Positions 17,562 to 63,948 of a DNA stretch of 64,000 bases are shown one piece after another. Each line of letters begins with the position of its first letter. Position 1 is the first letter of the stretch. The position numbers and the translations under genes are program-made. Below the pieces are notes generated by a model. It did not search any database. It was not told the DNA's origin and saw nothing but the letters and a program-made list of their open reading frames with translations. Source of the DNA: an uncultured Pseudomonadales bacterium (lineage in GTDB: Bacteria > Patescibacteriota > Microgenomatia > UBA1400 > PJMF01); contig CAZYBC010000005.1 in NCBI GenBank assembly GCA_964645645.1, forward strand, positions 702-64,701, given 5' to 3'.

Positions 17562-19091
17562 CTAGTTTGCTTTTGCCTTTTGAATGGCTAATTTTTGGCT
17601 GTAAGTAGTAATATCCCAGATTTGTTGGCAAAGGTTATTGGGTCGGCAATATTCGGCTAACAAAGTAATTTCTGAACTATTAATTAACATACGATGAGCG
17701 TTAACAATTAATAAAACCTGATCATAGTTATTAACTTTTTGGAGTAATTCTATGGGTAAGTCTCTGACTGGTTGACCAATGCCTTGAATAAATAGATTAG
17801 TGACATCGCGGCCATGATAATACATTAGTAAACCATCTGGTAAGGTACCAAAAAAACCTTCAGTCGCTACTAATAAATTTTTATCGGCTTTCAATTGATG
17901 AAGGTAAGTGACACTTTCTTTAACACCAAATCCAGCTGACCATTCATTTAAGTATTGAACCTGATCTAATTTGCTAAAAGGAATTTTACTTAAATCTGTG
18001 TATGAATAAAACATGAAACGACCACTCAAATATAAACTCCAACTAATTAAAACTAAAAGAATCAGTTTACCTAAAGATTTACATTCTTGCCATAAAGCTT
18101 CAGTGGATAAGGCAAAACTTAAGATAAAACCGATTATTGCTGGCATTAGATAACGGGCATAAACAGTTTTACCTAAAACAAACATTGGGAATAAAAAGCT
18201 GAGACTAGTTAAAATTAAAACTAGATTAGTGCGACGTAGTTTTTTGACTTTGATTAGAGCAATAAAAATAAACATAAACACTGGCCAAGTTAAATAATTG
18301 CCCAAACTCTCACCAAAGCTTAAACAGTTATGCCATAAAATTTGACCTGGCTGTTTGAAAAATTCTGTTAAAGGATATAAAAAATCATTTCCGCGACTAA
18401 ATAATTGGCCAAAAGCTGGATTTAATTTTAAACTAGCAAAAATAACTAAACCTAATAAAACAGTTAAACTGGGATTTAACCAAGTTTTTAAAGAAAACAG
18501 ATTTTTATTTTTAGCAAAAAGAACGATTAAAAAAAGACTAGGAATAAATAAAACTGCTGGAATTTTAGTCCATAAAGCTAAGCCTAAAAATAGACCAGCT
18601 AGACAGCTATCTTTTATCGCCAACGGCGATTGTTTAATAGCTTTAATCATGAAGTAAAAACTGAGTGATAACAGCAAAGTTAGCAAAGCATCAATTAAAG
18701 CCATGCGGTGATGAAAAAAGAAAAAAGGTAAGAAAATAACACTAAAACTAGCTAAAAGTTGAGCCAATTTTTTACCATTTAGGAGTTTGACTAAGGCGCC
18801 CATTACAAAAACTTGTCCTAGACCTACTAAGACTGATAAAAATCGTCCAGCATAAAGTTGATCATTAAAGATTAATTGAAAGGGTAGCATCAGCCACATT
18901 TGCAAAGGAGTTTTACCATCATTGAGCGGAAAAAATAGATATTGTTTCCAGTCATCCATAATTAATTGAGTCCAACGAATATAAATAGCTTCATCAGCAA
19001 AAACTGGTAAAAAGACTAATCTATATAATCTAGTAATTAAATAGAGGCCAATTAACAAGAGTGGTAAAAGCCAAGTCTTTTTTTTCATCAT
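17562..19091 (-). CDS. GT-C fold glycosyltransferase, ArnT/PMT-like (GT83/GT39 superfamily)
   Basis: About 12 predicted TM segments. The first extracytoplasmic loop carries FADEAIYIRWTQLIMDDW, resembling the ArnT DExRYAEISREMLxSGDW catalytic-loop motif. Confidence 0.55.
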   Translation of the reverse strand: MMKKKTWLLPLLLIGLYLITRLYRLVFLPVFADEAIYIRWTQLIMDDWKQYLFFPLNDGKTPLQMWLMLPFQLIFNDQLYAGRFLSVLVGLGQVFVMGALVKLLNGKKLAQLLASFSVIFLPFFFFHHRMALIDALLTLLLSLSFYFMIKAIKQSPLAIKDSCLAGLFLGLALWTKIPAVLFIPSLFLIVLFAKNKNLFSLKTWLNPSLTVLLGLVIFASLKLNPAFGQLFSRGNDFLYPLTEFFKQPGQILWHNCLSFGESLGNYLTWPVFMFIFIALIKVKKLRRTNLVLILTSLSFLFPMFVLGKTVYARYLMPAIIGFILSFALSTEALWQECKSLGKLILLVLISWSLYLSGRFMFYSYTDLSKIPFSKLDQVQYLNEWSAGFGVKESVTYLHQLKADKNLLVATEGFFGTLPDGLLMYYHGRDVTNLFIQGIGQPVRDLPIELLQKVNNYDQVLLIVNAHRMLINSSEITLLAEYCRPNNLCQQIWDITTYSQKLAIQKAKAN

Positions 19092-20320
19092 TTTTTAATT
19101 TTTTTTACTCCATAAACTAAAGTACATAAGGCTAAATAAATTATTGGTAATAGCCAAGTAATTAATTTTTGTTGAGCTAAAACTTCAGGAGTATAACCGT
19201 TAATTTTTAGCCAAGGTAAATAGCGTAATAAACTAGTTAAAGAAAAAATTAACAAGGTATTTCGCCAAACTTTTTCTTTAATAAACGGAAACCAAATTAA
19301 GCTCCAACTTAAATACCAAGGCAAAAATTGTTGTGAGCGAAGTGTAGTTAATGGTAAAAATAATAATAAAGAGGCTAATAGAGGCCAATTATTTTTTAAC
19401 CAATTAGTAAATTTGCTTGGCAGTTTAAATTTGAGTAATTGCAAATTTTCGTTTAATAAAAATGCCCAAATTGGAATTAAAACAACGGTCGCTAATTTGG
19501 TTGAAATAGAAAAAGCTAATAATAAAATAGAAAAAATGATTCTTTTAAGATCTAATTTTTTTTTGCCAACAATTAACAAACTAAGCATAGCTGGCAATAG
19601 CATCCACAAATCATTGTGACTATTACTGATTAATTCAAGCAGCATTAAAGGATTAAAAACTAAAGCCGTTAAAGACCAATTAAATTTTTTGTCATCTAAA
19701 TTAGCAAAATAGGCTTGTTTGAGAGAAATAATAATTTTAATAGTCAAAATTAGAGCTAAAACAGAAATTAACCTAAAAATTAACCAAGTAGTTAAAAATT
19801 TATTTAAACCCAATAAATAAGGTACTAGCGAAAATAATGTCCAACCATAACCATAAGGGGCCGGGGTATGAACATTATGCATAAAACGAGTCCAGGTATC
19901 AAAACTATAATTTAAAGCCACACTTTGATGAGGATTAGCGTGATAAACCAAAACCATTTTGGCATTAAAAATATAATTAAAAACGTCATAAGATAAGGCA
20001 TTAAAGCTCAAAATTAAAGGGCTAAGAATTAATAAATATTTAATGACTGTAGCTTTAAAATTTTTTTGCCAATCTAGCTTTAATTTTTGTTTGGATAATT
20101 GAAATAAAATTACTCCATAGCAAACAAACAAAGCAACAATTAAAATTAAAAATAAATTAGTGGCTAAATTTCGATTATTATAAATATTAGCCCACATCAT
20201 GTTTTGGAAATTAGTAAACCAAGTTTGATTAATTAAAGTTAAATTTGGTGCAGTTAAACCATAAGTAAATAAACCATAAGCCACTAAAAGCAAAAAATAA
20301 AAAATTAATAATAAACTCAT
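19088..20320 (-). CDS. Polytopic membrane protein, unclassified (possible GT-C or polymerase-like)
   Basis: A 410-aa protein with 10 or more hydrophobic segments. It has a conserved-looking loop (SYDVFNYIFNAKMVLVYHANPH...HTPAPYGYGW). It sits between GT-C and GT2 genes. Confidence 0.35.
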   Translation of the reverse strand: MSLLLIFYFLLLVAYGLFTYGLTAPNLTLINQTWFTNFQNMMWANIYNNRNLATNLFLILIVALFVCYGVILFQLSKQKLKLDWQKNFKATVIKYLLILSPLILSFNALSYDVFNYIFNAKMVLVYHANPHQSVALNYSFDTWTRFMHNVHTPAPYGYGWTLFSLVPYLLGLNKFLTTWLIFRLISVLALILTIKIIISLKQAYFANLDDKKFNWSLTALVFNPLMLLELISNSHNDLWMLLPAMLSLLIVGKKKLDLKRIIFSILLLAFSISTKLATVVLIPIWAFLLNENLQLLKFKLPSKFTNWLKNNWPLLASLLLFLPLTTLRSQQFLPWYLSWSLIWFPFIKEKVWRNTLLIFSLTSLLRYLPWLKINGYTPEVLAQQKLITWLLPIIYLALCTLVYGVKKIKK

Positions 20321-20322
20321 AG

Positions 20323-21075
20323 TCAGTATTTACCTTGTAAATCTGCTAATCTAATTTTGATAATATCTTTTAACATTCGCCAACTATCCTTAATAGGACT
20401 AACTCTGGCTGAGTGAAAATGTTTCCACAGGATAGGAACTTCCTTAATTTTGAGCTTATTTTTTCTGGCTAAATAGAGTAATTCAACATCAAAAGCTCCA
20501 GTAAAGGCATCTTTACGAGGTTTATTTGAACCATAAATATAAAGTTTATTAAATAGTTGTTCTTTAGCTGCATGAGAAAATAATTTAAAACCACACTGAG
20601 TATCCCAAATACCCGGTATGGCTAAAAATTGGACTAACAAATTAAAGCCTTTACCCATTAAATGACGATGAAGCGGCTCCTTATCGCGAATAGCTCCTGG
20701 TAATTCTCTAGAACCAATAATAATTTGATAATCAGCAGTAAAAGGAAGTAATTTTTCAATTTCTTTTAAAGGGGTACTTTGATCAAAATCAGTAAATAAA
20801 CACCAGTCTCCTGTTGCTGCTTTCATACCGGCTTTAACAGTTGGTGCCTTGCCAGCATGTTTATTGGCGAGTAATTTTACTCCATGATATTGTTGAGCAA
20901 ACTTTTCTAGAGTTTCAAGGGTGCCATCTTGGCTACCATCATCACTTAAAATAAGTTCAAATGAATAATCTTGACTTTTAAGATAATGATAAAGATCAAT
21001 TAATACACCTCTTTGAAGATTTTCCATCTCATTATATGAAGGCACAATCACTGATAAATAAGGTTTCTTAGACAT
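20323..21075 (-). CDS. GT2 polyprenyl-phosphate sugar synthase (DPM1/ArnC/GtrB-like)
   Basis: LSVIVPSYNEMENL...ELILSDDGSQDGT...DFDQSTP. A typical GT-A/GT2 DxD architecture at the short (~250 aa) DPM1-like size. Confidence 0.75.
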   Translation of the reverse strand: MSKKPYLSVIVPSYNEMENLQRGVLIDLYHYLKSQDYSFELILSDDGSQDGTLETLEKFAQQYHGVKLLANKHAGKAPTVKAGMKAATGDWCLFTDFDQSTPLKEIEKLLPFTADYQIIIGSRELPGAIRDKEPLHRHLMGKGFNLLVQFLAIPGIWDTQCGFKLFSHAAKEQLFNKLYIYGSNKPRKDAFTGAFDVELLYLARKNKLKIKEVPILWKHFHSARVSPIKDSWRMLKDIIKIRLADLQGKY

Positions 21076-21099
21076 AAATATATCTTACCAGACTAGTAA

Positions 21100-22650
21100 T
21101 TATCTTCTCAATAGATGAATAATTGGCCCATCTGGAATAATTAACTGCTCACTAATTTTTTTATTAGGAAAGGTGATTATTTCATATAGCTCAGATTTAT
21201 TTGGGTCAAAATTCTGTTTAAGTTCATCAATTACTACTAAATTTTGAGCTTGGCTACTTAATTCAAAATCAATTGGTGGGTGATTCATTGTAGATAGAAA
21301 ATAACGGTAGTTTTGACCATGAAGGTCATTAGTAATACTCAAAAGAATTAAACTATAACTTTCATTGGGCGGTACAAAATCAGTCACGGCTTGAGCTGTT
21401 TTTTGGATGTCTTTAATTGTCCAGCCAGCAGTTTGCCAGATTGGATTTTGTAAATTAAATTGAAAAATTAAATAGCTAAGAAAAATAAATCCAATTAATA
21501 CGACTAAATTTTTAATAAAATCTATTTTAGGAAGTTTAAAATTTAATAAACTATTAATTACGATGGCATAAACTAAAGCTGTTACAGGAAAAAGGTAGGC
21601 AATATAATGATCAAAAATACTGTTTTGATAAAAAGCTGTTCCTAAAATTCCAATAAAAAGAAAAATGGCAATAATGGTTGTTGGTGTAAGCTGATTGTTT
21701 TTAGCTCGTTTTTGTTTTACCACTACGGTAATTAATAAAATTAAAATAAAGCTATAAGCTAAAATCTGATTTAGCTGACGATTTTTTCCAATCATATATT
21801 CAAAAAGAATATGCATTGCTCTGCCTTCAGATTCACTCAAAGTTTTAAAAACTTTAGTTGTTAGCGGCTGATGGGTATTAGTAGAAAAATTTTCTCCTTG
21901 AGTTAATAGATTTTTAAAAGCTTTAAAATTTAAGCCATCATGTTTTAAATCAAAAAGGAATAATGGGGTTAAGCTAGCTAGAAAAATTAAAAAACCAATT
22001 AAAGTATATTTAAGATGTTCTAAATTAATTTTCTTTTGAAGTAAATAAATTAACCAAATTAATCCAGCCGTTCCTGCAGCTAATAAAGTTAAATAATGAA
22101 GTTGTAATAAAACAGCTATGCAAGTAAAAATTCCCAGCCAAAGTTTGGGATTTTTTTGTACTTTAAATAGTAAATAAATCATAATTATGCTAACTAAAGG
22201 AGCTGGATTAGGATTCCAACTAAAACGAGTTTGAGCGGCAATTGTAAAAGAAAAGGCATAAAAAAAGCTGGCAATTAAAGCAATTTTTTCATCAAACATT
22301 TTTTTAGCAAATAGATAAAGTAATAAAATTGTCATAATTCCTAAACAAGCAACAGCATAAATTGGCCCCATTGGACTAGGATATGACAAAAATAAAAAAG
22401 GCAACATAAAATAATAATAAAGTGGGCCTAAATACATGTTTCCCACACTAGTAACTGGGCCGATAAAAACCAAATCTTTTTCTTTAAAAATTTTGGAAAC
22501 AATTAAAGCATCACGACCTTGGTCACCTAAAAACTGTTGACTATTTTCTAGATTATATAAACGCAAAAAAGCTCCAGCTAATAAAATAATAATGAAAATT
22601 TTATCAGCCATACTTAATTGAGTAATAAATTGAATTAATTTTTTTAACAT
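21100..22650 (-). CDS. Polytopic membrane protein, 'DQxRD...GPxYYY' family (putative GT-C glycosyltransferase), paralog 1 of 4
   Basis: The N-terminal loop LGDQGRDALIVSKIF...FIGPVTSVGNMYLGPLYYYFMLPF aligns with ORFs 38271, 42852 and 45275. It has 12 or more TM segments. Confidence 0.45.
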   Translation of the reverse strand: MLKKLIQFITQLSMADKIFIIILLAGAFLRLYNLENSQQFLGDQGRDALIVSKIFKEKDLVFIGPVTSVGNMYLGPLYYYFMLPFLFLSYPSPMGPIYAVACLGIMTILLLYLFAKKMFDEKIALIASFFYAFSFTIAAQTRFSWNPNPAPLVSIIMIYLLFKVQKNPKLWLGIFTCIAVLLQLHYLTLLAAGTAGLIWLIYLLQKKINLEHLKYTLIGFLIFLASLTPLFLFDLKHDGLNFKAFKNLLTQGENFSTNTHQPLTTKVFKTLSESEGRAMHILFEYMIGKNRQLNQILAYSFILILLITVVVKQKRAKNNQLTPTTIIAIFLFIGILGTAFYQNSIFDHYIAYLFPVTALVYAIVINSLLNFKLPKIDFIKNLVVLIGFIFLSYLIFQFNLQNPIWQTAGWTIKDIQKTAQAVTDFVPPNESYSLILLSITNDLHGQNYRYFLSTMNHPPIDFELSSQAQNLVVIDELKQNFDPNKSELYEIITFPNKKISEQLIIPDGPIIHLLRR

Positions 22651-22658
22651 GGGCAGTG

Positions 22659-23855
22659 TTAATTATTTTTTTTCTTTTTCCAAATAAAAGTGTTATAAGC
22701 GAAAAAATTCCAGAACATACCAATTAAAATGCCTACTACGGCAATAATAGTTCCTAAATCTAAATCATAATTAATGATTGGCAATTTAAATAAAATTGGG
22801 AAGACAGCCAAGCCATTTTCTTGAGTAGCAAATAATCTTTCTCCCAAAAAAGCTAAAAATTGTTGAATTAAAATAGAACCCCCGCTAGCAAAATTAAATT
22901 TAATAAATTTACTTGGGATTTCGCTAAGCTTAAGCTTTCTATCTGCAAAAGTCCAAATGTTATTAATAGCAAAATTAATTAAAACAGCACATTCAATAGC
23001 GGCAAAATAAGCAGCCTGATAAGGTAAAAATAATCTAAAAGCTTGTAAAGAAATTAGTTGAGTTAAGGCTCCAATTGTACCAACCACTAAAAATTTAAAA
23101 ACTCGGCTCTCTAAAATTTCTTGAGTTCTAACTTTAAATAAATAAGAAAGATTATTAATAATAATTTTAAAAGAATTAATTTTGCTAGTACCAATAGTGC
23201 GATCTTTAAAGTGAAAAGGTATCTCCGTAATTTTAAATTTCTTTTTAAAAACTTTATGCAAAAACACAATTTGAAAAGTATAACCAGTAAAACGTGGATC
23301 ATTCATTTCATTTCCCACTGCCATAAAAACTTTTTTAGTAATCGCTCTATAACCACCAGTCCAGTCAGCAATCTTAAAATCAGTTAAAATAATTCTAATG
23401 ATTAAATTACCAAACACACTTAAAAATTTGCGGTGAATACCCCAATTAGAAGGAATACTGCCACCTTTAATGTATCTTGAGCCTAAAACCATATCATAGC
23501 CATGATCAATTTTATCTAAAAAGGCAGGAATTTTAGTAGGATCATGTGATAAATCAGCATCAAATTCAAAAATCACATCAGCATCTAGCTTGTAAAAAGC
23601 CTGTTTCATGCCAGCTAAATAGGCAGCTCCTAAACCAGCTTTCTTCTTATTAATGAGCAGATGTAAATTTTTTTGTTTTTTTTGTAATTCTTCTACAAAT
23701 TCATAAGTTTTATCTGGTGAACTATCATCAACCACTAAAATATGACAATCCCAATGTTGAGAGACTTTTTTAAAAGCTTCTTGAACCGCTAAAGTAGTTT
23801 GTTCAATATTGCCTCTTTCATTATAAGTAGGGATAATCACAATCGCTTTTGGCAT
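22659..23855 (-). CDS. GT2 polyprenyl-monophosphate-sugar synthase (DPM1/Ppm1-like) fused to a C-terminal GtrA-like TM domain
   Basis: VIIPTYNERGNI...ILVVDDSSPDKT...KKAGLGAAYLAG...FEFDADLSHDP is the DPM synthase signature. The C-terminal ~120 aa hold 4 TM segments (FKFLVVGTIGALTQLISLQAF), GtrA-like. Confidence 0.75.
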   Translation of the reverse strand: MPKAIVIIPTYNERGNIEQTTLAVQEAFKKVSQHWDCHILVVDDSSPDKTYEFVEELQKKQKNLHLLINKKKAGLGAAYLAGMKQAFYKLDADVIFEFDADLSHDPTKIPAFLDKIDHGYDMVLGSRYIKGGSIPSNWGIHRKFLSVFGNLIIRIILTDFKIADWTGGYRAITKKVFMAVGNEMNDPRFTGYTFQIVFLHKVFKKKFKITEIPFHFKDRTIGTSKINSFKIIINNLSYLFKVRTQEILESRVFKFLVVGTIGALTQLISLQAFRLFLPYQAAYFAAIECAVLINFAINNIWTFADRKLKLSEIPSKFIKFNFASGGSILIQQFLAFLGERLFATQENGLAVFPILFKLPIINYDLDLGTIIAVVGILIGMFWNFFAYNTFIWKKKKNN

Positions 23856-23860
23856 AAATT

Positions 23861-24847
<987 letters not shown>

Positions 24848-25795: not shown

Positions 25796-25801
25796 AATAT
25801 T

Positions 25802-27076: not shown

Positions 27077-27116
27077 AATAGGGTACAATATACTTATTAA
27101 TATAACAGATGCCAAG

Positions 27117-28403: not shown

Positions 28404-28523
28404 ATTAAAATGATTGAGATTTTGTATTACGTATTGCATTATATTAATTAAACCAAAGATAGTAAATATTTAGTTACTGCTATTTATAACAAACAAAAAT
28501 GAAAAAATTATGAAAAAAATAAA

Positions 28524-30672: not shown

Positions 30673-30690
30673 TGGACTTAGTATATCAGT

Positions 30691-53868: not shown

Positions 53869-53870
53869 AA

Positions 53871-55589: not shown

Positions 55590-57138
55590 GCATTTACTTA
55601 AAACTATCTTAATTGCTTTAATCGGCTTATTTGCTTTATTAAGATTAATTAACTTAGGCACTAATCCGATAATCCTTAATCGAGATGAAGCTGCCTTAGG
55701 TTATAATGCCTGGCTTTTATCTCAGACTGGTTGGGATGAATGGCATCAAAAATGGCCGTTAATGATTAAATCATTTGGTGATTATAAATTACCAGGCTAT
55801 GTTTATTTATTAGTCCCACTATTTAGAGTTTTTAGCACCAGTGATTTTTTATTAAGATTACCGGCTTGTCTTTCAGGGATAATTTTAATTTATTTGAGTA
55901 TCAATTTAGCCAAAAAATTAGGCTTAAAAAAAATTACAACATTAATTTTTGCTTTAAGTATCGCGATTACTCCGGTGTTTTTCTTTTATTCTCGCATGGC
56001 GTGGGAGGCTAATTTAGGCTTAACTTTGCTAATTGGTAGTTTGATTTGCTTATTAAATAAACAAAAATTATTTAATTACTTAGGAATAATTTTAATTTTA
56101 TTAGCTTGCTTTACTTATAATACTCCTTATCTATTATTACCTTTTATTTTAGTTGCTCTAATTTTTTGGCAAAAAATGATTGGCAAAAAAACTAATTGGC
56201 TAATTATTTTAGCCTTAGGCATAGTTTTTATTGGTACTAGTTTAATGATTTTGCCACTTACTAATCAAAAAAGCGGCATTACGATTTTTACTGATCCAAC
56301 GGTAAGAGCTAATTATATTAATTATCGAGCTGATTTTAGTGGCTTAAGTCAAAAAATTTTAGCTAATCAATATATCTATTGGGCATCACTAATGTTCAAA
56401 AATACTTTAGCCAGCTTTAGTTATCAATTTTTAGTAAAAAATGGTGGTGGTCATCCTTGGCATAGTCAGCCTGGTTTTGCTCATCTAAATAATAGTTTTT
56501 ATTTTGTCGGTTTAGCTAGTTTAGTTTTTAATTTAGGAAAAATAATCATTGATTTAATTAAACGTCGTAAAATTCAGTTGCCAATGGTTTTTTTAATTTG
56601 GCTTTTATTTTCAGCATTAATTCCCAGTGTAATTACTACAGACGCCCCACATGCCACTCGGAGTTTATTGTTTTTTTATCTATTTAATTTAATGGCCGTA
56701 ATCGGTTTAGAACAATTTTATTTAGCTGTTATTAAAAAAAAGCCAATGCTAGTGAAAACTTTATTGCTGATCTTAGCAAGTTTAATTAGTTTAGAAACTG
56801 GTCGCTATTTTTATCACTATTTTGTAAGTTATCCTCAGCAACAAACAGCTTTACAGCCTGGTTATCAAAAAGTTTTAGCAGAAGTGAAGTCAACTAATCA
56901 AGCCATTGCCGTGGTTGATCCAAGTGGGTATCAATATATTAGCACTGCTTGGTATCTAAAATTACCTACTAAAATCTTTCTTGATACAGTTATTCATCAA
57001 AATCCTAACCAAATTGGCTTGTCTTATGGAGAAAGAATTAACAATTATCACTTTATTGCCCAAAAAGAAGACCGTAATGAACAAGAAAAAATTTTAATTA
57101 TTTGGGAAAATGGGCAATGGGTTATACAATATTATTAG
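55579..57138 (+). CDS. GT-C glycosyltransferase, PMT/ArnT-like ('DE' family core paralog)
   Basis: ILNRDEAALGYNAWLLSQTGWDEWHQKWPLMIKSFGDYKLPGYVYLLVPL, and the C-terminal motif TDAPHATRSL. Confidence 0.6.
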   Translation: MKDKHLLKTILIALIGLFALLRLINLGTNPIILNRDEAALGYNAWLLSQTGWDEWHQKWPLMIKSFGDYKLPGYVYLLVPLFRVFSTSDFLLRLPACLSGIILIYLSINLAKKLGLKKITTLIFALSIAITPVFFFYSRMAWEANLGLTLLIGSLICLLNKQKLFNYLGIILILLACFTYNTPYLLLPFILVALIFWQKMIGKKTNWLIILALGIVFIGTSLMILPLTNQKSGITIFTDPTVRANYINYRADFSGLSQKILANQYIYWASLMFKNTLASFSYQFLVKNGGGHPWHSQPGFAHLNNSFYFVGLASLVFNLGKIIIDLIKRRKIQLPMVFLIWLLFSALIPSVITTDAPHATRSLLFFYLFNLMAVIGLEQFYLAVIKKKPMLVKTLLLILASLISLETGRYFYHYFVSYPQQQTALQPGYQKVLAEVKSTNQAIAVVDPSGYQYISTAWYLKLPTKIFLDTVIHQNPNQIGLSYGERINNYHFIAQKEDRNEQEKILIIWENGQWVIQYY

Positions 57139-57141
57139 AAT

Positions 57142-57930
57142 ATGATTTCAATCGTCTTAGCTATTCATAATGAAGAAAAAAATTTAACGGCTTGTTTAAG
57201 CAGTGTAGCTGATTTTGCCGATGAGATTATTGTTGTTGATGGTGAATCAACAGATCAAAGTTTAGTAATTGCCAAAAAATTTAAAGCTAAAATTATTAAA
57301 ACCAGCAATAAAAAAAACTTTCACATTAATAAACAATTAGGCTTAAACAAAGCTAAAGGTGATTTGGTTTTACAATTAGATGCTGATGAAATAGTTGACC
57401 AAGATTTAAAAAAATTTATTCTTAATTTACATCAACAAATTCTTAATTTAAGTCCTAAACAAGAAGCTCATTTTCAACCCAAAGCTTGGTGGTTAAAAAG
57501 AAAAAATTTCTTTATGGGTAAAGCTTTTAAAAAAGGTGGTCAATATCCTGATCCAGTGATTAGATTATTTATTAATGGTTTTGCTAGATTACCTCAGAAA
57601 GATGTCCATGAACAAATGCAAGTTGATGGCCAAGTTGGCTGGGCAGAAGGTCATTTGCTTCATTATTCTAATCCTCACTTTAGTGATTATTTAAGAAAAT
57701 TTACTACTTATACAGATTTTAAAGCCACTCAATTAAAACAACAAAAACTTAAAATTAATTTAATCACAGCGTTTAAGTATTTAATTTTTTTGCCTCTTTA
57801 TACCTTTTGCCAATTGTTTTTAAGACACAAGGGTTTTGTTGATGGTTGGCGAGGTTTCATTTTTGCTCTTTTTAGTGCTCTACATCATCCTATTAGTTAT
57901 TTAAAATACTGGGAACTAAAATATGATTAA
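57142..57930 (+). CDS. GT2 glycosyltransferase, WaaE/KdtX-like (paralog 3 of 3)
   Basis: ISIVLAIHNEEKNLTACLSSVADFADEIIVVDGESTDQS...LQLDADEIV. Confidence 0.7.
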   Translation: MISIVLAIHNEEKNLTACLSSVADFADEIIVVDGESTDQSLVIAKKFKAKIIKTSNKKNFHINKQLGLNKAKGDLVLQLDADEIVDQDLKKFILNLHQQILNLSPKQEAHFQPKAWWLKRKNFFMGKAFKKGGQYPDPVIRLFINGFARLPQKDVHEQMQVDGQVGWAEGHLLHYSNPHFSDYLRKFTTYTDFKATQLKQQKLKINLITAFKYLIFLPLYTFCQLFLRHKGFVDGWRGFIFALFSALHHPISYLKYWELKYD

Positions 57931-58981
57931 AGTTTTAATTGATACTAGCCCTTTGGCTAATGCTAATTCTATTAGAGGAGTTGGCAATTATACTAGATTC
58001 ATTACTCAATATTTAGAAAAAATTCCAAATTTAGAAGTTAAAAGAGCTCAACGTAAAAGTTTCAGAAGTTTTAAACCAGATATTGTCCATTATCCTTTTT
58101 TTGATTTATTTTTTAATACTTTACCGATTACTTTAGGTCGTAGACATAAAATAATAGTAACAGTTCATGATGTTATCCCTCTAAAATTTCCCCAATGTTA
58201 TCCAGCTGGCATTAAAGGCAAGCTTAGATTAATGAAACAAAAAAAAGCCCTACAGATGGCTGATGCTATTATTACTGACTCTTTTGCTTCTAAAAAAGAT
58301 ATCCAAAATTATTTAGGAATTAACGAAAATAAAATCCATGTTGTTTATTTAGCTGCTAATCCTAATTTGACTAAACCCACTGAACAAATCATTACTAAAG
58401 TTACTCGTAAATATAATCTTCCTAAGAATTATTTATTATATGTAGGTGATATTAACTATAATAAAAATATTCCTCAATTAATTAAAACTTTAAAATATTT
58501 ACCTCCTCAAATCAAACTGGTTTGTGTTGGTCGCAATTTTGTGCCAGCTAATATTCCAGAATGGCAATGGATTGAAACTCAAATTGCCATGAGTGATGTA
58601 AGTAAAAGAATTAAATTTATTACTGATTTAAGAAGTGAACAAACTGAAGAATTAGCCGCTATTTATTCCGGAGCTCTAGCTTATATTCAGCCCTCATTAG
58701 CTGAAGGTTTTGGCTTACCAATTTTAGAAGCAATGCAGTGTCAAACCCCAGTGATAGCTAGCAATAATAGTTCTTTAATAGAGATCGGTGATAAATATGC
58801 TTTATTTAGTGAAGCAAATGCTGAGGCCTTTGCAGAACAAGTTGAAGTGATTCTAAATTGGACTAAGGAAAAAAGAACTCAACATCTTCAAGAAGCTTTA
58901 TTGTGGACTAAAAGTTTTACCTGGGAAAAAGCTGCTCATGAAACTCATCAAGTTTACCAACAAATCATGGCTAAAAAATAA
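57923..58981 (+). CDS. GT4 (GT-B fold) glycosyltransferase
   Basis: EX7E motif EGFGLPILEAMQCQTPVIAS and a glycos_transf_1 C-terminal domain. The N-terminal GT-B domain begins IKVLIDTSPLANANSIRGVGNY. Confidence 0.75.
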   Translation: MIKVLIDTSPLANANSIRGVGNYTRFITQYLEKIPNLEVKRAQRKSFRSFKPDIVHYPFFDLFFNTLPITLGRRHKIIVTVHDVIPLKFPQCYPAGIKGKLRLMKQKKALQMADAIITDSFASKKDIQNYLGINENKIHVVYLAANPNLTKPTEQIITKVTRKYNLPKNYLLYVGDINYNKNIPQLIKTLKYLPPQIKLVCVGRNFVPANIPEWQWIETQIAMSDVSKRIKFITDLRSEQTEELAAIYSGALAYIQPSLAEGFGLPILEAMQCQTPVIASNNSSLIEIGDKYALFSEANAEAFAEQVEVILNWTKEKRTQHLQEALLWTKSFTWEKAAHETHQVYQQIMAKK

Positions 58982-58989
58982 AGTATGTT

Positions 58990-60615
58990 ATGTTAAAAAA
59001 TTTTTTATCTAAATTTTTATTAATGATTTTTTTAATTTTTAGTATTATTTTTTTGCTCAAACCTTATTTAAGCACAACTTTTCCTTATACCCATGATGGC
59101 ATGAATCATTTAGCAAGATTTGCTAATTATAAAATTGCTTTACGTGAAGGACAGTTTCCACCACGTTTAGCCCCAAATTTACTTAATCATTATGCTTACC
59201 CAGTTTTTAATTACAATTATCCATTAGCAAATATTTTATCTTTACCTTTTTCAATTATCGGTTTTAATTATGAATTAACTTTTAAAATTATAGTTGTTTT
59301 TAGCTTAATTTTAGCTTGCTTAGGTATAACTTTTTGGTTAAAAAGCCGAAAAGACAAGCTTACAATCGTTTTTTCTCTGGTGGTTTTTCTTCTAAATCCT
59401 TATTTAATTAACTTAATTTTTTTTAGAGGCAATATTGGTGAAATTTTAGCTTTATCATTATTACCGTGGTTATTTTATAGTTTGGAAAAATTTAAAACTA
59501 AATCAACCGTTAATTCATTTGATCTTTTACTATGGACAGCTTTTTTATTATCACACAACGTAACTGTTTTATTTGGTAGTGGCATATTAATAGTTTATGC
59601 CATTTTAATTTTCAAAAATAATTTACAAGCTTATAAAAAATTAGCTTTTGTTTTTATTGGCTCAATCTTATTAAGTTTGTGGTTTTGGTTACCGGCTCTT
59701 GCTGAAAAAAATCAAATTGTTTTAGATAATGCTAATTTAAATATTGATTTTCTTACTCACTTTCCAACTCTTAAAGAATTATTATTGGCACCTTTAGAAT
59801 TTGGTTTTTCTCGCGTTGGATCAGTTGATGATCTTAGTTTTAGTTTAGGATTAGTGCAAATTCTAATCATTGTTTTGAGTTTTATATTATTATTTATTAA
59901 TCAAAAATTTGCTCAAAAAAATAAATTTTTAATTATTTTAATTTTAGCTTGTTTAGTTTTTCAATTATCCTTGACTCAAAAAATTTGGCAGGTTTTACCA
60001 TTAGTCTCTTTTATTCAATTCCCTTGGCGTTTAACTTTATTCATTAGTATTTTAATTTTGCCTTTAGCAGCACAATTATGGCAATTTAATAAAATAAGAT
60101 TGATTTTATTATTCTTACTTTTAATTCAAATTATTAATTTAAGTCGTTTAAAACCAGCTGACCAATTTCATTATCAAAAAGTAGACTATGAAGCCTTTAG
60201 TCAAACTACTTCTACTCAAAATGAAAATTTAGCCAAAACTTTTAAATATCAAAATTTTGCTGATTGGCAACCAACTGCCAAAATTTTAAATGGGGAAGGG
60301 GAAATCAAAATTAATTATTGGTTTGGTTCCAAAAGAGAATATCAGCTGCATCTTACTACCGATGCAACTATTATTGAACCAAGCATGAATTATTTAGGTT
60401 GGCAAACCTGGGCCAATCAACAAAAAATTTCTTATTTTGATAATGAACAAATTGCAGGCAGAATTGCTTATCAACTTAAAGCTGGTGATTATTTAATTAA
60501 AACTAAATTTACCCAACAAACCCCAGCCCGCTTAATTGGCAACTTTGTGAGCCTTAGTGCTGGCCTTATTTATTTAATTTTATTATTTAAAAATAAATAT
60601 GCTAAAAAAAATTAG
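58990..60615 (+). CDS. Polytopic membrane protein, family B, paralog of 32211 (putative GT-C)
   Basis: TFPYTHDGMNHLARFANYKIALREGQFPPRL and IQFPWRLTLFISILIL. Confidence 0.4.
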   Translation: MLKNFLSKFLLMIFLIFSIIFLLKPYLSTTFPYTHDGMNHLARFANYKIALREGQFPPRLAPNLLNHYAYPVFNYNYPLANILSLPFSIIGFNYELTFKIIVVFSLILACLGITFWLKSRKDKLTIVFSLVVFLLNPYLINLIFFRGNIGEILALSLLPWLFYSLEKFKTKSTVNSFDLLLWTAFLLSHNVTVLFGSGILIVYAILIFKNNLQAYKKLAFVFIGSILLSLWFWLPALAEKNQIVLDNANLNIDFLTHFPTLKELLLAPLEFGFSRVGSVDDLSFSLGLVQILIIVLSFILLFINQKFAQKNKFLIILILACLVFQLSLTQKIWQVLPLVSFIQFPWRLTLFISILILPLAAQLWQFNKIRLILLFLLLIQIINLSRLKPADQFHYQKVDYEAFSQTTSTQNENLAKTFKYQNFADWQPTAKILNGEGEIKINYWFGSKREYQLHLTTDATIIEPSMNYLGWQTWANQQKISYFDNEQIAGRIAYQLKAGDYLIKTKFTQQTPARLIGNFVSLSAGLIYLILLFKNKYAKKN

Positions 60616-61753
60616 TCTTTGGTTTATTCTTTGGCGAATTGCCTTGTTTTTATTAGCAATAATAGCGCCTTATTTATTGATTTATCAGCCAAGTTTTCCT
60701 TATGCTGATAGTTTGTTGCCCAATACAAATCTTCCTCAATGGCTGTATTCTTTTGCCAATTTTGATGGCGTGCACTATTTAACTATTGCTAATAAAGGTT
60801 ATATCGGGACTGGTTTAATTCAAGCTTTCTTTCCGGTTTATCCCTATTTAATTAGAATCTTAAGTTTTAAATACTTTTCTTTATTATTAACAGGCTTAAC
60901 TATTAGTAATTTAAGTGCTTGGCTATTATTAATTTTATGGTTTGCTAGTTTAAAAAAAATCTTCAATACTAAAATAGCCAACTTAGGCATCTTGGTTTTA
61001 ATTTTTTCTCCTACGTCTTTCTTTTTAGGCAGTTTATATAATGAAAGTTTATTTTTAAGTTTAATTTTGGCTTGCTTTTTAGCTAGTAAAAAAAAGCATT
61101 GGCTGTTAGCTGGCTTATTTGCTGGCCTAGCCAGCGCCACTAGAGTAGTGGGAATTTTCAGTTTATTAATTATTGTAATTGAAGCCTGGCAAAGTTTAGG
61201 TAAAAAAATGTTTAAAAACTGGCAAATCTACTTAAGTTTAATCTTAGCTAGCAGCGGTCTAATGGCTTATATGTGGTTTTTAAAAACTGAATTTGATGAC
61301 TATTTATACTTTTTACATGTTCAAAATCAATTTGGAGCAGGGAGACAAAGTCAGTTAATTTTGTTTCCTCAAGTAATTTGGCGATATAGCAAGATTTTAC
61401 TAACAGCTCGCCCAATTAATTGGAAATATTATAGTTATGTCCAAGATTTAATCATTAGTCTTGGCGGATGCTTAATTTTACTTAAACAAATTTACCAAAT
61501 TGTTAAAGAAAAAAAATTAAATTCTCCAACTCTTAGTTTACTTATTTTTTCAACAGCTTGCTTTTTTTTACCCAGTTTAACAGGTACTTTTTCTAGTATG
61601 CCTAGATATCTTTTAGCTTGCCCAAGCATTTTTATATTTATTGCTAACTGGCTTCATCAACATTCCAAGTGGCAGATTTTATATTTTAGTATTAGTATAG
61701 GACTACTTATTATTAACACTATTTTATTTATCCAAGGTTATTGGGTAGCTTAA
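60599..61753 (+). CDS. Polytopic membrane protein, possibly PIG-V/Gpi18-like (GT76-type) mannosyltransferase homolog
   Basis: A 384-aa protein with about 8-10 TM segments. The N-terminal luminal loop FANFDGVHYLTIANKGY resembles the WDxxHF..IA..GY block of the PIG-V (Mannosyl_trans2) family. Assigned from memory of the motif; needs an HMM check. Confidence 0.35.
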   Translation: MLKKISLWFILWRIALFLLAIIAPYLLIYQPSFPYADSLLPNTNLPQWLYSFANFDGVHYLTIANKGYIGTGLIQAFFPVYPYLIRILSFKYFSLLLTGLTISNLSAWLLLILWFASLKKIFNTKIANLGILVLIFSPTSFFLGSLYNESLFLSLILACFLASKKKHWLLAGLFAGLASATRVVGIFSLLIIVIEAWQSLGKKMFKNWQIYLSLILASSGLMAYMWFLKTEFDDYLYFLHVQNQFGAGRQSQLILFPQVIWRYSKILLTARPINWKYYSYVQDLIISLGGCLILLKQIYQIVKEKKLNSPTLSLLIFSTACFFLPSLTGTFSSMPRYLLACPSIFIFIANWLHQHSKWQILYFSISIGLLIINTILFIQGYWVA

Positions 61754-61757
61754 ATTT

Positions 61758-62672
61758 ATGCAAAAACTTAACATTATTGTGACTGGTGGGTCTGGTTTTT
61801 TAGGCAGACATTTATTAAGAGCTTTATCAGCCGCCGGACATCAAGTAAAAAATATTGATCTTAAAGAAAATCCGGAATTTCCGACAACTATTGCTGATGT
61901 AAGAGATCAAGAAAGAATGTTAGCTGAAGTTAAAAATGCTGATGCGGTTTTCCATTTAGCCAGCCTAATTGAAGCTGGTGAATCTGTTAAAGAACCAGCC
62001 AAATTTATTGATTACAACATTAATGGCACTTTAAATATTTTAGAGGCAATGCGCCAAAATAACATTAAAACTTTTTTATTTTCTTCCAGTGCCGCCATCT
62101 ATGGAGAACCTTTAAAAACCCCCATTAAAGAAGATGATCGCTATTTACCCATTAATCCTTATGGCATGACTAAATTAGCCATGGAAGGTCTATTAGCTAG
62201 TTATGTCAAAGCCCACGGTTTTACTGGCGTAGCTTTACGCTATTTTAATCTTTACGGCCCAGAAGAACATCATATCCCTGAAACTCACGCCATCCCTCGT
62301 TTTATTGAACAAATTAAAAATGAACAAGAAGTCACAGTTTGGGGTGACGGCCAACATCAACGTGATTTTGTTTATGTCTTAGATATTGTTGAAGCTCACT
62401 TAAAAGCCTTAAATTATGCTTTAAAACACCCTCAGCAATATCATTATTTCAATCTGTCTGGCGCTAATGCTACAAAAGTGATTGACGTCATTAAAATTTT
62501 AGAAAAATTAATTGCTAAAAAAGCAATTATTAAACACTTTCCAGATCGACCGGGAGACCCCAGAGTGTTAATTGCTGATGATAGTAAAGCTAAAAAAGAA
62601 TTAAATTGGCAAGCCCAAGTTAAAATTGAAGAAGGCTTAAAAAAAACAGTTGAATATTTTGCTAAAAAATAG
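61758..62672 (+). CDS. NAD-dependent sugar-nucleotide epimerase/dehydratase (GalE-like short form)
   Basis: IVTGGSGFLGRHL Rossmann, the SSSAAIYGEP catalytic Ser region, and YGMTKLAME (YxxxK). Confidence 0.7.
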   Translation: MQKLNIIVTGGSGFLGRHLLRALSAAGHQVKNIDLKENPEFPTTIADVRDQERMLAEVKNADAVFHLASLIEAGESVKEPAKFIDYNINGTLNILEAMRQNNIKTFLFSSSAAIYGEPLKTPIKEDDRYLPINPYGMTKLAMEGLLASYVKAHGFTGVALRYFNLYGPEEHHIPETHAIPRFIEQIKNEQEVTVWGDGQHQRDFVYVLDIVEAHLKALNYALKHPQQYHYFNLSGANATKVIDVIKILEKLIAKKAIIKHFPDRPGDPRVLIADDSKAKKELNWQAQVKIEEGLKKTVEYFAKK

Positions 62673-63948
62673 CCTTTAATAAACCACTTAAATTTTTTAG
62701 TCTTTCTAAAAAAATGCCTGGAGCATATTTAATTTTTTGACTAATAGACCAATTTTTAGCAATTACTAGACACCAGTTTTTTAGATCTAACCAAGCTTTA
62801 TAAATTGGCTTTTTAGATGATGTTTGCTGACCTAAATGGATAACTTCTACACTTTTAATAGCTAAATTTTTATAACCTTTTTTATCAAATCTTAATCCAA
62901 GATCAATATCTTCTAAATAAGAACCAAATTTTTCATCAAATAAGCCCACTTCTTCTAAAGCGAAACGGTTAAATAGTACAACAGCTGCATTAAAACTATT
63001 ACTAATAGTAAATTCAGCTAATTGATGATTGGGTATAGCTTTACCAATTGGTAAAACGATAACTCCCAAAGATTCTATTTCGCCTTTAGAATTCTTTATT
63101 AAAGGAGAAATTGTTCCAAGTTTAATTTGTTGATTTTTCTGATAATTTTTAGCTTCTTTAATTAAATTTTCTAACCAGCCATTTGATAAAATTACGTCAT
63201 CATTTACTGTTCCTAACAAATCTCCAGTAGCCCTTTTTAAACCGATATTAACGGTCTTAACAAAACCTTTGTTTTTTTCAATTTGAATAAAAATTACTTG
63301 AGGATAATCTTGTCTTAAATTATAAATATTAGATGCCGAAGTAACAATAATTAATTCATCTTGAGAATAATCAAAAAATTTATTATTTAGTATCAAAAAA
63401 TTTTTTAAAAGATCTTTTCTTAAATTTGGGACAATGATGCTAGCTCTAATCTTAGAATTTTTAGGATAAAGTTTATTATTAGCAAAACGGCTAGTTAATT
63501 TTTTAACTATTAATTTTTTACAACCAGAAAAATATTTATCTGCATAAATATTAAGAGAATGAAAAAAAACTTGTTTTTTCCAAGACATACTTAAAGGCTT
63601 AAAAGACGATCCTCCTTGATGTTTTATCGTTATTGCTTTAGAAATTCCAAAATTGTGTTCATCATTTAATAATTTTTTAGAAACATCACTATCTTCAAAC
63701 CATAAAAAAAAGCGTTCATCCCAAAGACCTAAAGTTAAAAACTTAGTTTTATTTACTAATAAACAAGCTCCAGGTAAAGTAATTTTTTGAGGATTTTTAT
63801 TTTTTATAATTTTATTAAGCCAAGAAAATTCAGTTATTAAAGAAAAAAAATTGGGAATTTCTTTACGATAATTAAAATCTAACTGACCTTTATCATTTAA
63901 AAAAGTTGGAGCAACAGCCGTTAAATTTTTTTCTTTTAACTCTATCAA
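62662..63948 (-). CDS. GT2 glycosyltransferase with tandem GT2-like modules; the N-terminus probably extends beyond the window end
   Basis: The C-terminal module is SIIVPNLRKD...GDLLGTVNDDVIL...YLEDIDLGLRF. The N-terminal ~120 aa look like the C-terminal half of another GT2 domain (GACLLVNKTKF...WFEDSDVSKKL). The upstream frame stays open to near position 64000. Confidence 0.55.
   Translation of the reverse strand: MIELKEKNLTAVAPTFLNDKGQLDFNYRKEIPNFFSLITEFSWLNKIIKNKNPQKITLPGACLLVNKTKFLTLGLWDERFFLWFEDSDVSKKLLNDEHNFGISKAITIKHQGGSSFKPLSMSWKKQVFFHSLNIYADKYFSGCKKLIVKKLTSRFANNKLYPKNSKIRASIIVPNLRKDLLKNFLILNNKFFDYSQDELIIVTSASNIYNLRQDYPQVIFIQIEKNKGFVKTVNIGLKRATGDLLGTVNDDVILSNGWLENLIKEAKNYQKNQQIKLGTISPLIKNSKGEIESLGVIVLPIGKAIPNHQLAEFTISNSFNAAVVLFNRFALEEVGLFDEKFGSYLEDIDLGLRFDKKGYKNLAIKSVEVIHLGQQTSSKKPIYKAWLDLKNWCLVIAKNWSISQKIKYAPGIFLERLKNLSGLLKAIF

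Follow-up and report, generated by a model that had tools for sequence, protein, structure and literature searches.

Extracytoplasmic glycosylation systems of the Gtr type consist of three components, a GtrB-like GT2 enzyme, a flippase and a GT-C glycosyltransferase (PMC11127046). In the lactococcal rhamnan-pellicle (PSP) pathway, which includes WpsA/B, the Wzx-type flippase WpsG and the GT-C enzymes WpsH and WpsJ, a GT2 enzyme starts an oligosaccharide on undecaprenyl monophosphate, soluble glycosyltransferases elongate it, the flippase exports it, and the GT-C enzymes polymerise and transfer it (PMC10821137). Here we describe a glycosylation island in a 64,000-nucleotide stretch of DNA (hereafter the window) from contig CAZYBC010000005.1, which is labelled Pseudomonadales and placed in the Patescibacteriota by its GTDB lineage. 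The island occupies positions 17562-63948 (46 kb), position 1 being the first letter of the window, and encodes sixteen polytopic GT-C-type proteins. Very probably it is a machinery for lipid-linked extracytoplasmic glycosylation. We further consider it probable that this is a conserved Patescibacteria (Microgenomates-type) locus for a complex envelope glycan, built on polyprenyl-phosphate carriers with most linkages made by GT-C enzymes outside the membrane.

We identified 39 genes in the island, with a coding density of 99% on the open reading frame (ORF) map. Pfam and NCBIfam scans, of which the Pfam scans covered every window ORF of at least 100 amino acids (aa) plus four shorter ORFs, mark 34 of the 39 as glycan-related, in agreement with the initial annotation of this DNA, which had described an island of about 46 kb in which almost every gene serves glycans. 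The other five are trmD, VapC and its antitoxin partner, a DUF167 ORF and an ORF for a 76-aa membrane protein. The genes for the sixteen GT-C-type proteins add up to 25,971 bp, or 56% of the island. They are accompanied by nine GT2 domains (seven of them stand alone, one is joined to a GtrA-type membrane domain and another to a GT-C), two GT4 genes, one Wzx flippase (Polysacc_synt_3), one LytR-CpsA-Psr (LCP) ligase and six nucleotide-sugar enzymes. The same numbers of GT2 and GT4 genes, the flippase, the ligase and about sixteen GT-C-like proteins had been counted before from the letters of the sequence, and our scans reproduce them; for the GT-C-like proteins the agreement draws on hydropathy, Pfam, BLASTP paralogy, hhalign and one fold model. 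Where seven nucleotide-sugar enzymes had been claimed, we found six. The window is AT-rich throughout (GC 0.23-0.34).

The GT-C-type genes, referred to below by their first coordinate, are as follows.

17562-19091, minus strand: PMT/PMT_2-type GT-C (GT39-like), 509 aa; PMT_2 47.5 bits and PMT 41.8 bits, both above cutoff
19088-20320, minus strand: MptA/MptB-family-like GT-C, 410 aa; precomputed PF26314 (MptA_B_family) match
21100-22650, minus strand: Family B GT-C with the motif F.GDQGRDA, 516 aa; PMT_2 26.0 bits (gathering score 26.1)
32211-33962, plus strand: Family C GT-C (PTPS_related/YfhO-like), 583 aa; full-length BLASTP match to 58990 at 5e-25
36177-38201, minus strand: sequence-orphan GT-C, STT3/AglB-like in fold and with a globular domain at the C-terminus, 674 aa; AlphaFold2 model
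38271-39830, plus strand: accessory Family B GT-C, 519 aa; PMT_2 29.8 bits, above cutoff, and paralogy
39830-41164, plus strand: accessory PMT_2-type GT-C with an ADE motif, 444 aa; PMT_2 52.3 bits, PMT 23.4 bits
41168-42862, plus strand: accessory Family A GT-C with the motif RDELALAYNA...SFGDWKLPGY, 564 aa; BLASTP 8e-41 to 52174
42816-44348, plus strand: accessory Family B GT-C, 510 aa; BLASTP 2e-21 to 21100; PMT_2 20.5 bits, below cutoff
45275-46840, plus strand: accessory Family B GT-C with the motif FWFDQSRDA, 521 aa; BLASTP 8e-18 to 21100
49776-52184, plus strand: 802-aa fusion of a GT2 (about residues 1-285) with a Family A GT-C (about 286-802); Pfam GT2 64.8 bits; BLASTP to Family A
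52174-53868, plus strand: Family A GT-C, first of three in tandem; pairwise BLASTP 1e-25 to 1e-53
53844-55589, plus strand: Family A GT-C, second of three in tandem; pairwise BLASTP 1e-25 to 1e-53; PMT_2 25.3 bits
55579-57138, plus strand: Family A GT-C, third of three in tandem; pairwise BLASTP 1e-25 to 1e-53; TIGR03663 (Agl23-like) at 9e-8 over the whole length
58990-60615, plus strand: Family C GT-C, PTPS_related, 541 aa; PF10131 58.2 bits against a cutoff of 26.4
60599-61753, plus strand: PIG-V/Gpi18-like GT-C with the motif FANFDGVHY, 384 aa; homolog annotations

Hydropathy counts give each of these proteins 5-12 transmembrane (TM) segments, and all-against-all BLASTP and alignments sort their genes into at least seven sequence families. 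Four proteins score above the cutoff of a curated GT-C family: 17562, 38271 and 39830 (PMT_2/PMT) and 58990 (PTPS_related). PTPS_related, YfhO, Mannosyl_trans2 and GT87 are, we take it, all members of the Pfam GT-C clan. In fourteen of the sixteen proteins an acidic motif is conserved after the first TM helix, and the conserved Asp of 19088 and that of 36177 each sit in a loop further along; the motif loop is placed outside the membrane by positive-inside reasoning only. All told, fifteen of the sixteen tie to GT-C families by sequence, through PMT/PMT_2, PTPS_related, MptA_B, Mannosyl_trans2, or paralogy and hhalign. PDB sequence searches with the unclassified proteins and the family profiles returned nothing usable, ArnT appearing only at E=0.63. 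The GT-C enzymes are predicted to use polyprenyl-phosphate-linked donors, for which three candidate synthases are encoded in cis.

The relatives used for comparison are GCA_034680565.1 (L001), a Logan assembly (L002), a metagenome-assembled genome labelled 'Parcubacteria group bacterium' (L004) and a 74-kb forest-soil contig (ENA ERZ1758453, GC 0.40-0.43; L007 to L009). Seven window proteins resemble ArnT or PMT, as had been proposed: 17562, 39830 and the five Family A paralogues. Protein 17562 carries ADEAIY after its first TM helix, has an ortholog at the same position in L008, and passes the gathering score of Pfam PMT (PF02366, 22.7 bits) clearly with its 41.8 bits; 39830 passes marginally, with 23.4. 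The combination of PF02366 with a DE motif in loop 1, taken as the mark of GT39, is absent from the other 14 GT-C proteins. Family A consists of 41168, 52174, 53844, 55579 and, in 49776, the last 520 residues. Its members share 26-32% identity and the pattern DE.A.GY.A.S...TG.DE.G..P....SFGDYK.P after the first TM helix, and BLASTP links them to the PMT_2 proteins 17562 and 39830. Family A matches number 715 cluster representatives at E<1e-30.

The four 'DQxRD' proteins of the initial annotation (21100, 38271, 42816 and 45275) form our Family B, with the motif DQGRD. BLASTP joins 21100 to 42816, 45275 and 38271 at 1e-16 to 1e-21, and hhalign connects Family A to Family B with 96% probability over the N-terminal 200 residues. 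The pair that had been named 'family B' also holds together, as the PTPS_related/YfhO-like proteins 32211 and 58990 (here Family C, motif HD..H); 32211 has FHDFTHG after its first TM helix, a weak YfhO match at its C-terminus, and orthologs in L002 and L004. The single PIG-V-like protein is 60599. Its homologs carry PF04188 (Mannosyl_trans2, PIG-V), PF13231 (PMT_2) or PF09594 (GT87) and the JGI name 'Gpi18-like mannosyltransferase', and its ortholog in L007 matches Mannosyl_trans2.

Two proteins had been left unclassified, and both can now be assigned: 36177 has a GT-C fold by structure prediction, and 19088 is MptA_B-like. PF26314 is annotated on P0098, the cluster representative identical to 19088, and on all 120 homologs among the matches listed, which come from across Patescibacteria at 42-61% identity. 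Protein 19088 and these homologs share an invariant D112 in YNALSHDVFNY. A local hmmscan of 19088 against Pfam gave no match, a discrepancy that evidently reflects differing Pfam copies.

The 674-aa protein 36177 has no Pfam (E <= 0.01), NCBIfam or PDB sequence match, either as a single sequence or as a 49-sequence profile; two of the 49 family members weakly touch DUF6541. Its 94 homologs are unnamed or come from Patescibacteria (Woesebacteria, Curtissbacteria, Daviesbacteria). An AlphaFold2 model built on its homolog alignment (pLDDT 93.8, pTM 0.93) is a helical bundle throughout, and its closest structural neighbours are STT3B and AglB, C-terminal globular domain included. AftA, AftB, AftD and PimE are also among the neighbours. 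The model thus pairs an STT3-type fold with a C-terminal extracytoplasmic domain. Residues D142 and H146 are near-invariant, D142 lying in a loop later than the first. Comparison of the family with Families A and B by hhalign was not significant (5% and 18% probability), so the assignment to GT-C comes from the fold alone. The WWDYG motif (WWD.G) is absent from the protein and from the 49-sequence consensus, and none of the 49 members matches Pfam STT3; without this motif, we rejected the protein as an oligosaccharyltransferase of family GT66.

The position and orientation of the 674-aa gene vary between genomes, and it is mostly opposite to its neighbours. In both L001 and L007 the orthologs of 52174 and 53844 flank it, and there too it runs on the strand opposite to theirs.

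When 1.84 billion cluster representatives, drawn from a database clustered at 50%, were searched exhaustively without a profile, 12 proteins of 795-850 aa showed the fused form of 49776. These matches run from residues 1-3 through at least residue 771 at 37-51% identity, and many split forms of the GT2/GT-C pair appear in the same search. With twelve representatives matching end to end, the fusion is a recurrent form, not a product of sequencing error. L001 and L007 encode the GT2 and GT-C parts in two neighbouring genes with 1 to 10 nt between them. The fusion argues that its two halves act on the same pathway step or intermediate, and the GT2 half may make the lipid-linked donor for its GT-C. 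An AlphaFold2 model that used eight window sequences as its alignment was poor (pLDDT 50.9). A Foldseek search with this low-confidence model retrieved AglB (1e-4) and ArnT (1.6e-4) at TM-scores of 0.26-0.36, and only GT-C structures at E<0.1.

The genes for sugar supply, cytoplasmic transfer, flipping and ligation are as follows.

20323-21075, minus strand: soluble GT2, candidate polyprenyl-phosphate-sugar synthase, 250 aa; Glycos_transf_2 84 bits
22659-23855, minus strand: GT2 like type-III dolichyl-phosphate-mannose synthase (DPMS), with a GtrA/DPMS membrane domain, 398 aa; Glycos_transf_2 97 bits, GtrA_DPMS_TM 54.6 bits
23861-24838, minus strand: Gmd, GDP-mannose 4,6-dehydratase; TIGR01472 450.6 bits against an equivalog cutoff of 415
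24848-25795, minus strand: short-chain dehydrogenase/reductase (SDR) family epimerase/reductase; Pfam, below equivalog level
25802-27115, minus strand: UDP-glucose 6-dehydrogenase-type enzyme; TIGR03026 433 bits against a subfamily cutoff of 190
28524-29411, minus strand: RmlD-like reductase; TIGR01214 132 bits, below the cutoff of 224
29404-30417, minus strand: RmlB, dTDP-glucose 4,6-dehydratase; TIGR01181 495.8 bits against an equivalog cutoff of 365
30924-32069, minus strand: LCP glycopolymer-to-peptidoglycan ligase, 381 aa; Pfam 103.2 bits against 24.6
33964-35457, plus strand: Wzx/MOP flippase, 497 aa; Polysacc_synt_3 156.8 bits
35470-36180, plus strand: soluble ArnC/GtrB/GacI-like GT2, candidate undecaprenyl-phosphate-sugar synthase, 236 aa; PDB ArnC 4e-16, GtrB 1.7e-11
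44355-45245, plus strand: soluble GT2, 296 aa; Glycos_transf_2 65.9 bits; ortholog in L007
46919-47833, plus strand: rhamnosyltransferase/GlfT1-like GT2; Pfam and NCBIfam; colinear ortholog in L007
47838-48665, plus strand: GT2; Pfam and NCBIfam; colinear ortholog in L007
48669-49772, plus strand: GT4; Pfam and NCBIfam; colinear ortholog in L007
57142-57930, plus strand: GT2; Pfam; orthologs in L001 and L007
57923-58981, plus strand: GT4; Pfam; orthologs in L001 and L007
61758-62672, plus strand: GalE-like epimerase; Pfam; NCBIfam galE 212.8 bits, below the cutoff of 262
62662-63948, minus strand: GT2, 428 aa; Pfam

Three of the GT2 proteins (22659, 20323 and 35470) are candidate polyprenyl-phosphate-sugar synthases. 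Protein 22659 matches the Pyrococcus furiosus DPMS structure (PDB 5mlz) at E=1.7e-45 over residues 3-340. For 20323, PgfS is the best NCBIfam match (sub-threshold, with ArnC also listed) and PfDPMS the best PDB match (2.4e-14), alongside ArnC. Protein 35470 matches PgfS/ArnC in NCBIfam, has no ortholog in L007 and is specific to this genome. By their matches, 44355, 46919, 47838, 57142, 62662 and the two GT4 proteins look like ordinary cytoplasmic glycan-extending enzymes.

The Wzx protein has two sub-threshold NCBIfam matches, one to an MOP flippase model with 85.7 bits (cutoff 273) and one to an O-glycosylation flippase model with 77.9 bits (cutoff 720). The LCP ligase also matches TIGR00350 (84.9 bits against a cutoff of 62.3) and has one TM segment at about residue 37; its gene is divergent from the Wzx-containing block across a 141-bp spacer. 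None of the window ORFs of 100 aa or more matches Bac_transf, Glycos_transf_4, Wzy_C or Wzz. We rejected a classical Wzx/Wzy O-antigen or capsule locus, as only Wzx is present and a phosphoglycosyl transferase, Wzy and Wzz are missing from the window.

The region 32211-62672 contains 21 plus-strand genes and one minus-strand gene. It had been read as a single-strand block of 22 genes (32.2-62.7 kb) with short or overlapping junctions. The junctions are indeed tight, at -47 to +78 nt between co-directional genes; the single strand does not stand, since 36177-38201 runs on the minus strand. From this arrangement co-expression of the block is plausible. A consensus promoter and terminator scan did no better on the window than on shuffled sequence (98 versus 98.2 promoters) and is uninformative on operon structure.

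Gene order in the island is conserved on independent contigs. The loci around homologs of the 674-aa protein in L001, L002, L004 and L006 carry the same kind of island. Over window 17562-30417 the soil contig gives one-to-one best matches, in order, to twelve genes, a count that takes in trmD, on the opposite strand, and a flanking response regulator; it is also colinear with window 33964-35457, 44355 and 46919-62672. The window has in addition the GT2 gene 35470 and five GT-C genes (38271, 39830, 41168, 42816 and 45275). On this comparison about 11 GT-C genes make up the conserved core of the island, to which a lineage-specific accessory set is added. In a neighbour-joining tree of Family A, every window paralogue pairs with its own ortholog from other genomes, which indicates that the duplications are ancient and that each copy has been kept. 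Since distant relatives carry the same gene set, gene for gene, the island is real and old, and not an artefact. Homologs of the window proteins bear the names Woesebacteria, Pacebacteria, Curtissbacteria, Daviesbacteria and 'Microgenomates'.

Close relatives of island genes are also found in two bins labelled Pseudomonadales and Gammaproteobacteria (L005, CAZIBP010000040.1; L006, CAZPUU010000001.1). Both are probably mis-binned, since in gene content and GC (0.31-0.37) they resemble Patescibacteria. In L009, the segment 13662-19195, beyond the ortholog of 62662, encodes a DegT-type aminotransferase, a methyltransferase, an epimerase and two more GT4 proteins; the island of the window may likewise extend past its end at 64000.

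GC content is 0.31-0.34 in the housekeeping part of the window (1-18000) versus 0.23-0.30 in the plus-strand GT-C block, and 0.34-0.43 in the colinear relatives. Composition, through the AT-rich codons of membrane proteins, probably accounts for the drop, rather than recent transfer. We did not accept the low GC of the plus-strand block as proof that it was acquired horizontally: synteny favours vertical descent, and composition is explanation enough.

From these assignments we infer which sugars are used, in what order the steps occur, what the acceptor is and what the 674-aa protein does, as follows. Gmd and the SDR enzyme, identified by homology, would make a GDP-6-deoxyhexose, the UDP-glucose dehydrogenase UDP-glucuronic acid, and RmlB with the RmlD-like reductase a dTDP-6-deoxyhexose; a GalE-like epimerase would contribute to the same supply. 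Soluble GT2 and GT4 enzymes would then build an oligosaccharide on a lipid carrier at the cytoplasmic face, initiated perhaps by an ArnC/GacI-like GT2 that forms a polyprenyl-monophosphate sugar, as in the lactococcal pellicle. GT2 initiation on a monophosphate carrier would, by that precedent, explain why the island lacks a phosphoglycosyl transferase. Wzx would flip the carrier-linked intermediate. In parallel, 22659, 20323 and 35470 would make polyprenyl-phosphate-monosaccharides, mannose being the likely sugar for the DPMS-like enzyme. Outside the cell, the sixteen GT-C enzymes would extend, branch, polymerise or transfer the glycan with lipid-linked donors, each anciently diverged paralogue probably responsible for one specific linkage, and the LCP ligase would join the finished polymer to peptidoglycan. 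The minus-strand genes for Gmd, the DPMS-like GT2, a Family B GT-C, a further GT2, the MptA/B-like GT-C and the PMT-like GT-C, in this order, look like a mannose module, which may mannosylate proteins or a lipoglycan in parallel.

As to the main product, we lean slightly towards an LCP-anchored wall heteropolysaccharide. With both an LCP ligase and Wzx present, a peptidoglycan-linked wall polysaccharide is at least as likely as glycoproteins or a lipoglycan. The position of the LCP gene beside the Wzx block points to peptidoglycan anchoring, and this fits the Gram-positive-like envelope proposed for bacteria of the candidate phyla radiation (CPR; PMC6744442).

Several points weigh against the proposal of an LCP-anchored envelope glycan. 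Every function in it is assigned by homology. LCP enzymes are common in monoderm genomes, so the central position of this one is no proof that it acts here, and the PMT-type matches fit protein glycosylation equally well. Pfam PMT_2 scores are at or below the gathering score for 21100, 42816 and 53844. A confident structural model covers one of the sixteen GT-C proteins, the second model having the low pLDDT given above. The window lacks rmlA and rmlC, which leaves the dTDP-sugar product of the RmlB and RmlD-like pair ambiguous. Finally, the Pfam scans of the window found no phosphoglycosyl transferase, Wzy, Wzz or other chain-length regulator, or ABC exporter.

Many similar-sized membrane genes in tandem, at a GC content below that of the housekeeping genes, might suggest that the assembly is at fault or that a single gene has undergone recent, unstable amplification, and the initial annotation had itself raised a misassembled concatenation of repeats. 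The island contains no DNA repeats of >60 nt or >73% identity, save one 87-nt inverted pair with 71% complementarity. Its paralogues are only 25-32% identical at the protein level, and on separate contigs recovered from other samples one-to-one orthologs keep their order. With repeats lacking and such orthologs present elsewhere, we rejected recent amplification and misassembly, whose probability we put close to nil. We also regard it as very improbable that the polytopic proteins are transporters, O-antigen polymerases or ligases, or structural proteins with spurious PMT_2 matches. Family scores at or under threshold (26.0, 25.3 and 20.5 bits), six proteins without any Pfam match in the local scan, and PDB sequence searches without a significant result would agree with such a view. 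However, the Pfam-less proteins link by BLASTP or hhalign to GT-C proteins above threshold (the 674-aa protein, as noted, by fold alone), none of the sixteen matches Wzy_C or an MFS, ABC or RND transporter family, the acidic positions described above are conserved, and even the low-confidence fusion model retrieved GT-C structures exclusively at E<0.1.

If the GT-C reading is kept, other products come into question. General protein O-glycosylation, in which PMT-like GT-Cs would modify Ser/Thr of S-layer proteins, pilins or secreted proteins and other GT-Cs extend the glycan, is possible and in our view rather unlikely as the main function. It would account for the PMT match and DE motif of 17562 (with 39830 marginal), for a DPMS homologue in the same operon, for the sub-threshold match of Wzx to an O-glycosylation flippase model, and for the appearance of PgfS, of the streptococcal Pgf protein-glycosylation system, among the best GT2 matches. 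Against it, an LCP wall-polymer ligase lies at the island centre, PMT_2 is a generic ArnT/PMT-type model and no marker of protein substrates, the window holds neither an O-oligosaccharyltransferase (PglL/Wzy_C type) nor an obvious target gene rich in Ser/Thr, and known protein O-mannosylation takes one PMT, not sixteen GT-Cs. The MptA_B-family, PIG-V/Gpi18-like and DPMS-like proteins, together with the AftA, AftB, AftD and PimE neighbours of the orphan, instead recall membrane-anchored lipoglycans of the lipomannan or lipoarabinomannan type, made on a glycolipid primer by MptA/B-, PimE/PIG-V- and Emb/Aft-like GT-Cs. We consider this quite unlikely: the window contains no PimA/PimB-type phosphatidylinositol mannosyltransferase signature, and window Pfam scans found no decaprenyl-phosphoarabinose genes (UbiA-type DPPR synthase, DprE1/2), whereas Wzx and the LCP ligase point to carrier-linked intermediates and wall attachment. 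A similarly small chance attaches to a bacterial counterpart of the endoplasmic-reticulum-lumenal or archaeal assembly line for lipid-linked oligosaccharides (LLOs), in which a fixed series of GT-Cs would extend the flipped glycan stepwise with DPMS-type donors and the 674-aa protein would transfer it en bloc. If so, the 674-aa protein would be a new class of oligosaccharyltransferase or wall-glycan ligase, and the GT2-GT-C fusion a self-contained enzyme whose donor is made inside and used outside.

Further genes lie within the island.

27069-27767, plus strand: trmD; tRNA_m1G_MT 179 bits
27760-28439, minus strand: VapC (PIN) and a small antitoxin-like ORF; PIN 48 bits, DUF6290 weak

It had been stated that only trmD and a VapBC cassette interrupt the island. 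This is right for VapBC, to which two small ORFs at 30442-30921 must be added; trmD occupies the same place, on the opposite strand, in the orthologous island of the soil relative (L008 2597-3244), and for that reason we count it as a conserved passenger and not an interruption. The VapC/antitoxin cassette is absent from L008, where the slot holds rmlC (dTDP_sugar_isom, L008 1175-1708); by this comparison it is a genome-specific insertion at the place of the relative's rmlC. The listed start of the trmD ORF overlaps the UDP-glucose dehydrogenase gene by 47 nt, and the true start is probably the ATG near 27114 ('MQINILTLFPDFF').

A two-component pair, identified by Pfam, borders the island.

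16182-16847, plus strand: response regulator
16844-17503, minus strand: soluble histidine kinase, 219 aa, without membrane segments

The kinase gene lies 58 nt downstream of the last GT-C gene in the same direction, and in L008, too, a response regulator abuts the island. The pair may regulate the locus. The first 17.5 kb of the window are otherwise a housekeeping region with genes for ribosome recycling factor, an RseP-type protease, SecD/SecF, CCA-adding enzyme, RecJ, a DsbA-like protein, a cyclophilin, a CapA-like protein and tRNA-Gln. The CapA/PGA_cap-type protein (14069-15082, 196 bits) is encoded upstream of the island, adjoining the membrane-anchored cyclophilin, and hints at a further envelope polymer function. 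A 435-aa protein at 11971-13278 has about seven TM segments (one N-terminal, six C-terminal) and no Pfam or NCBIfam match.

The kinds of component in the island are all known: GT-C enzymes, GtrB/DPMS-type GT2 enzymes, a Wzx flippase and an LCP ligase. What is unusual is the presence of sixteen GT-C genes in 46 kb, with a core colinear across divergent Patescibacteria, together with a Pfam-less and PDB-orphan GT-C of STT3/AglB-like architecture and a recurrent GT2-GT-C fusion. Full-text literature searches, and term searches within CPR-focused papers, gave no account of such loci in Patescibacteria, and the initial description of an elaborate, uncharacterised surface glycosylation system is a fair reading in view of this, of the GT-C families recognised by sequence and of the gene-for-gene conservation. 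Méheust et al. note only that hypothetical membrane proteins account for many of the families enriched in Microgenomates.

Patescibacteria make up a large share of bacterial diversity, and most are thought to live attached to other cells; to our knowledge their envelope chemistry is essentially unknown. In a genome of about 1 Mb, typical of the group, 46 kb is roughly 4-5% of the whole. Since the pathway has been kept gene for gene across genomes more than 10 GC points apart, its product is likely central to the cell surface, and it may be involved in host recognition or phage defence. The locus is a compact natural collection of GT-Cs, including a fusion that joins a cytoplasmic GT-A enzyme to an extracytoplasmic GT-C enzyme. 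It offers targets for heterologous expression, structural work and glycoengineering, and a marker set for metagenome searches.

Among known systems, eukaryotic and archaeal LLO assembly (DPM1/ALG5, ALG3/9/12/6/8/10, STT3/AglB) resembles the scheme proposed for the island in its serial GT-Cs that act on a flipped lipid-linked glycan with GT2-made donors of the Dol-P-Man/Glc type. The fold of the 674-aa protein is nearest STT3B/AglB, and the nearest solved relative of 22659 is archaeal DPMS. The island differs in having no sequence similarity to the ALG and STT3 families, and no WWDYG motif.

The arabinogalactan and lipomannan/lipoarabinomannan pathways of Corynebacterineae (Emb, Aft, MptA/B, PimE, Pmt, Ppm1, Lcp1) also use many GT-Cs outside the membrane, polyprenyl-phosphate sugars and LCP ligation, and share MptA/B-like, PMT-like and DPMS-like proteins with the island. 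Actinobacterial polyprenyl-phosphate-mannose pathways serve protein O-mannosylation and lipomannan, and the putative mannose module of the island parallels them. Unlike these pathways, the island has no arabinose-donor genes, no Emb/Aft sequence families and no giant GT-Cs bearing carbohydrate-binding modules; the mycobacterial arabinan genes (UbiA-type DPPR synthase, DprE1/E2, Emb/Aft) have no Pfam match in the window. The mycobacterial counterparts are scattered over a 4.4-Mb genome, with about six GT-C genes in the arabinogalactan region of about 35 kb, whereas the island packs them into 46 kb in a small-genome lineage.

The lactococcal PSP locus likewise contains deoxyhexose (rml) genes. 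It encodes two GT-Cs where the island encodes sixteen, and the island has neither the rhamnan ABC exporter nor rmlA and rmlC. Gtr-type systems include O-antigen glucosylation in Shigella and Salmonella, GT136 ribofuranose transfer and GacI/J/K/L of group A Streptococcus (PMC11127046; PMC10821137). The logic proposed for the island, with a donor made inside and transferred outside, is theirs too, and their three-component arrangement recurs in the island, where 22659, with its fused GtrA_DPMS_TM domain, adjoins the GT-C 21100, and 35470 lies near Wzx 33964 and the GT-C 32211. The island departs from these systems in that its synthase carries the GtrA-like part as a fused domain and one of its GT-Cs is joined to a GT2. 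The Gtr, Gac and Wps loci have one or two GT-Cs each, and Gtr-type systems use one GT-C, rarely a few, to add a single side-chain sugar; the island unites sixteen GT-Cs from at least seven sequence families in one locus.

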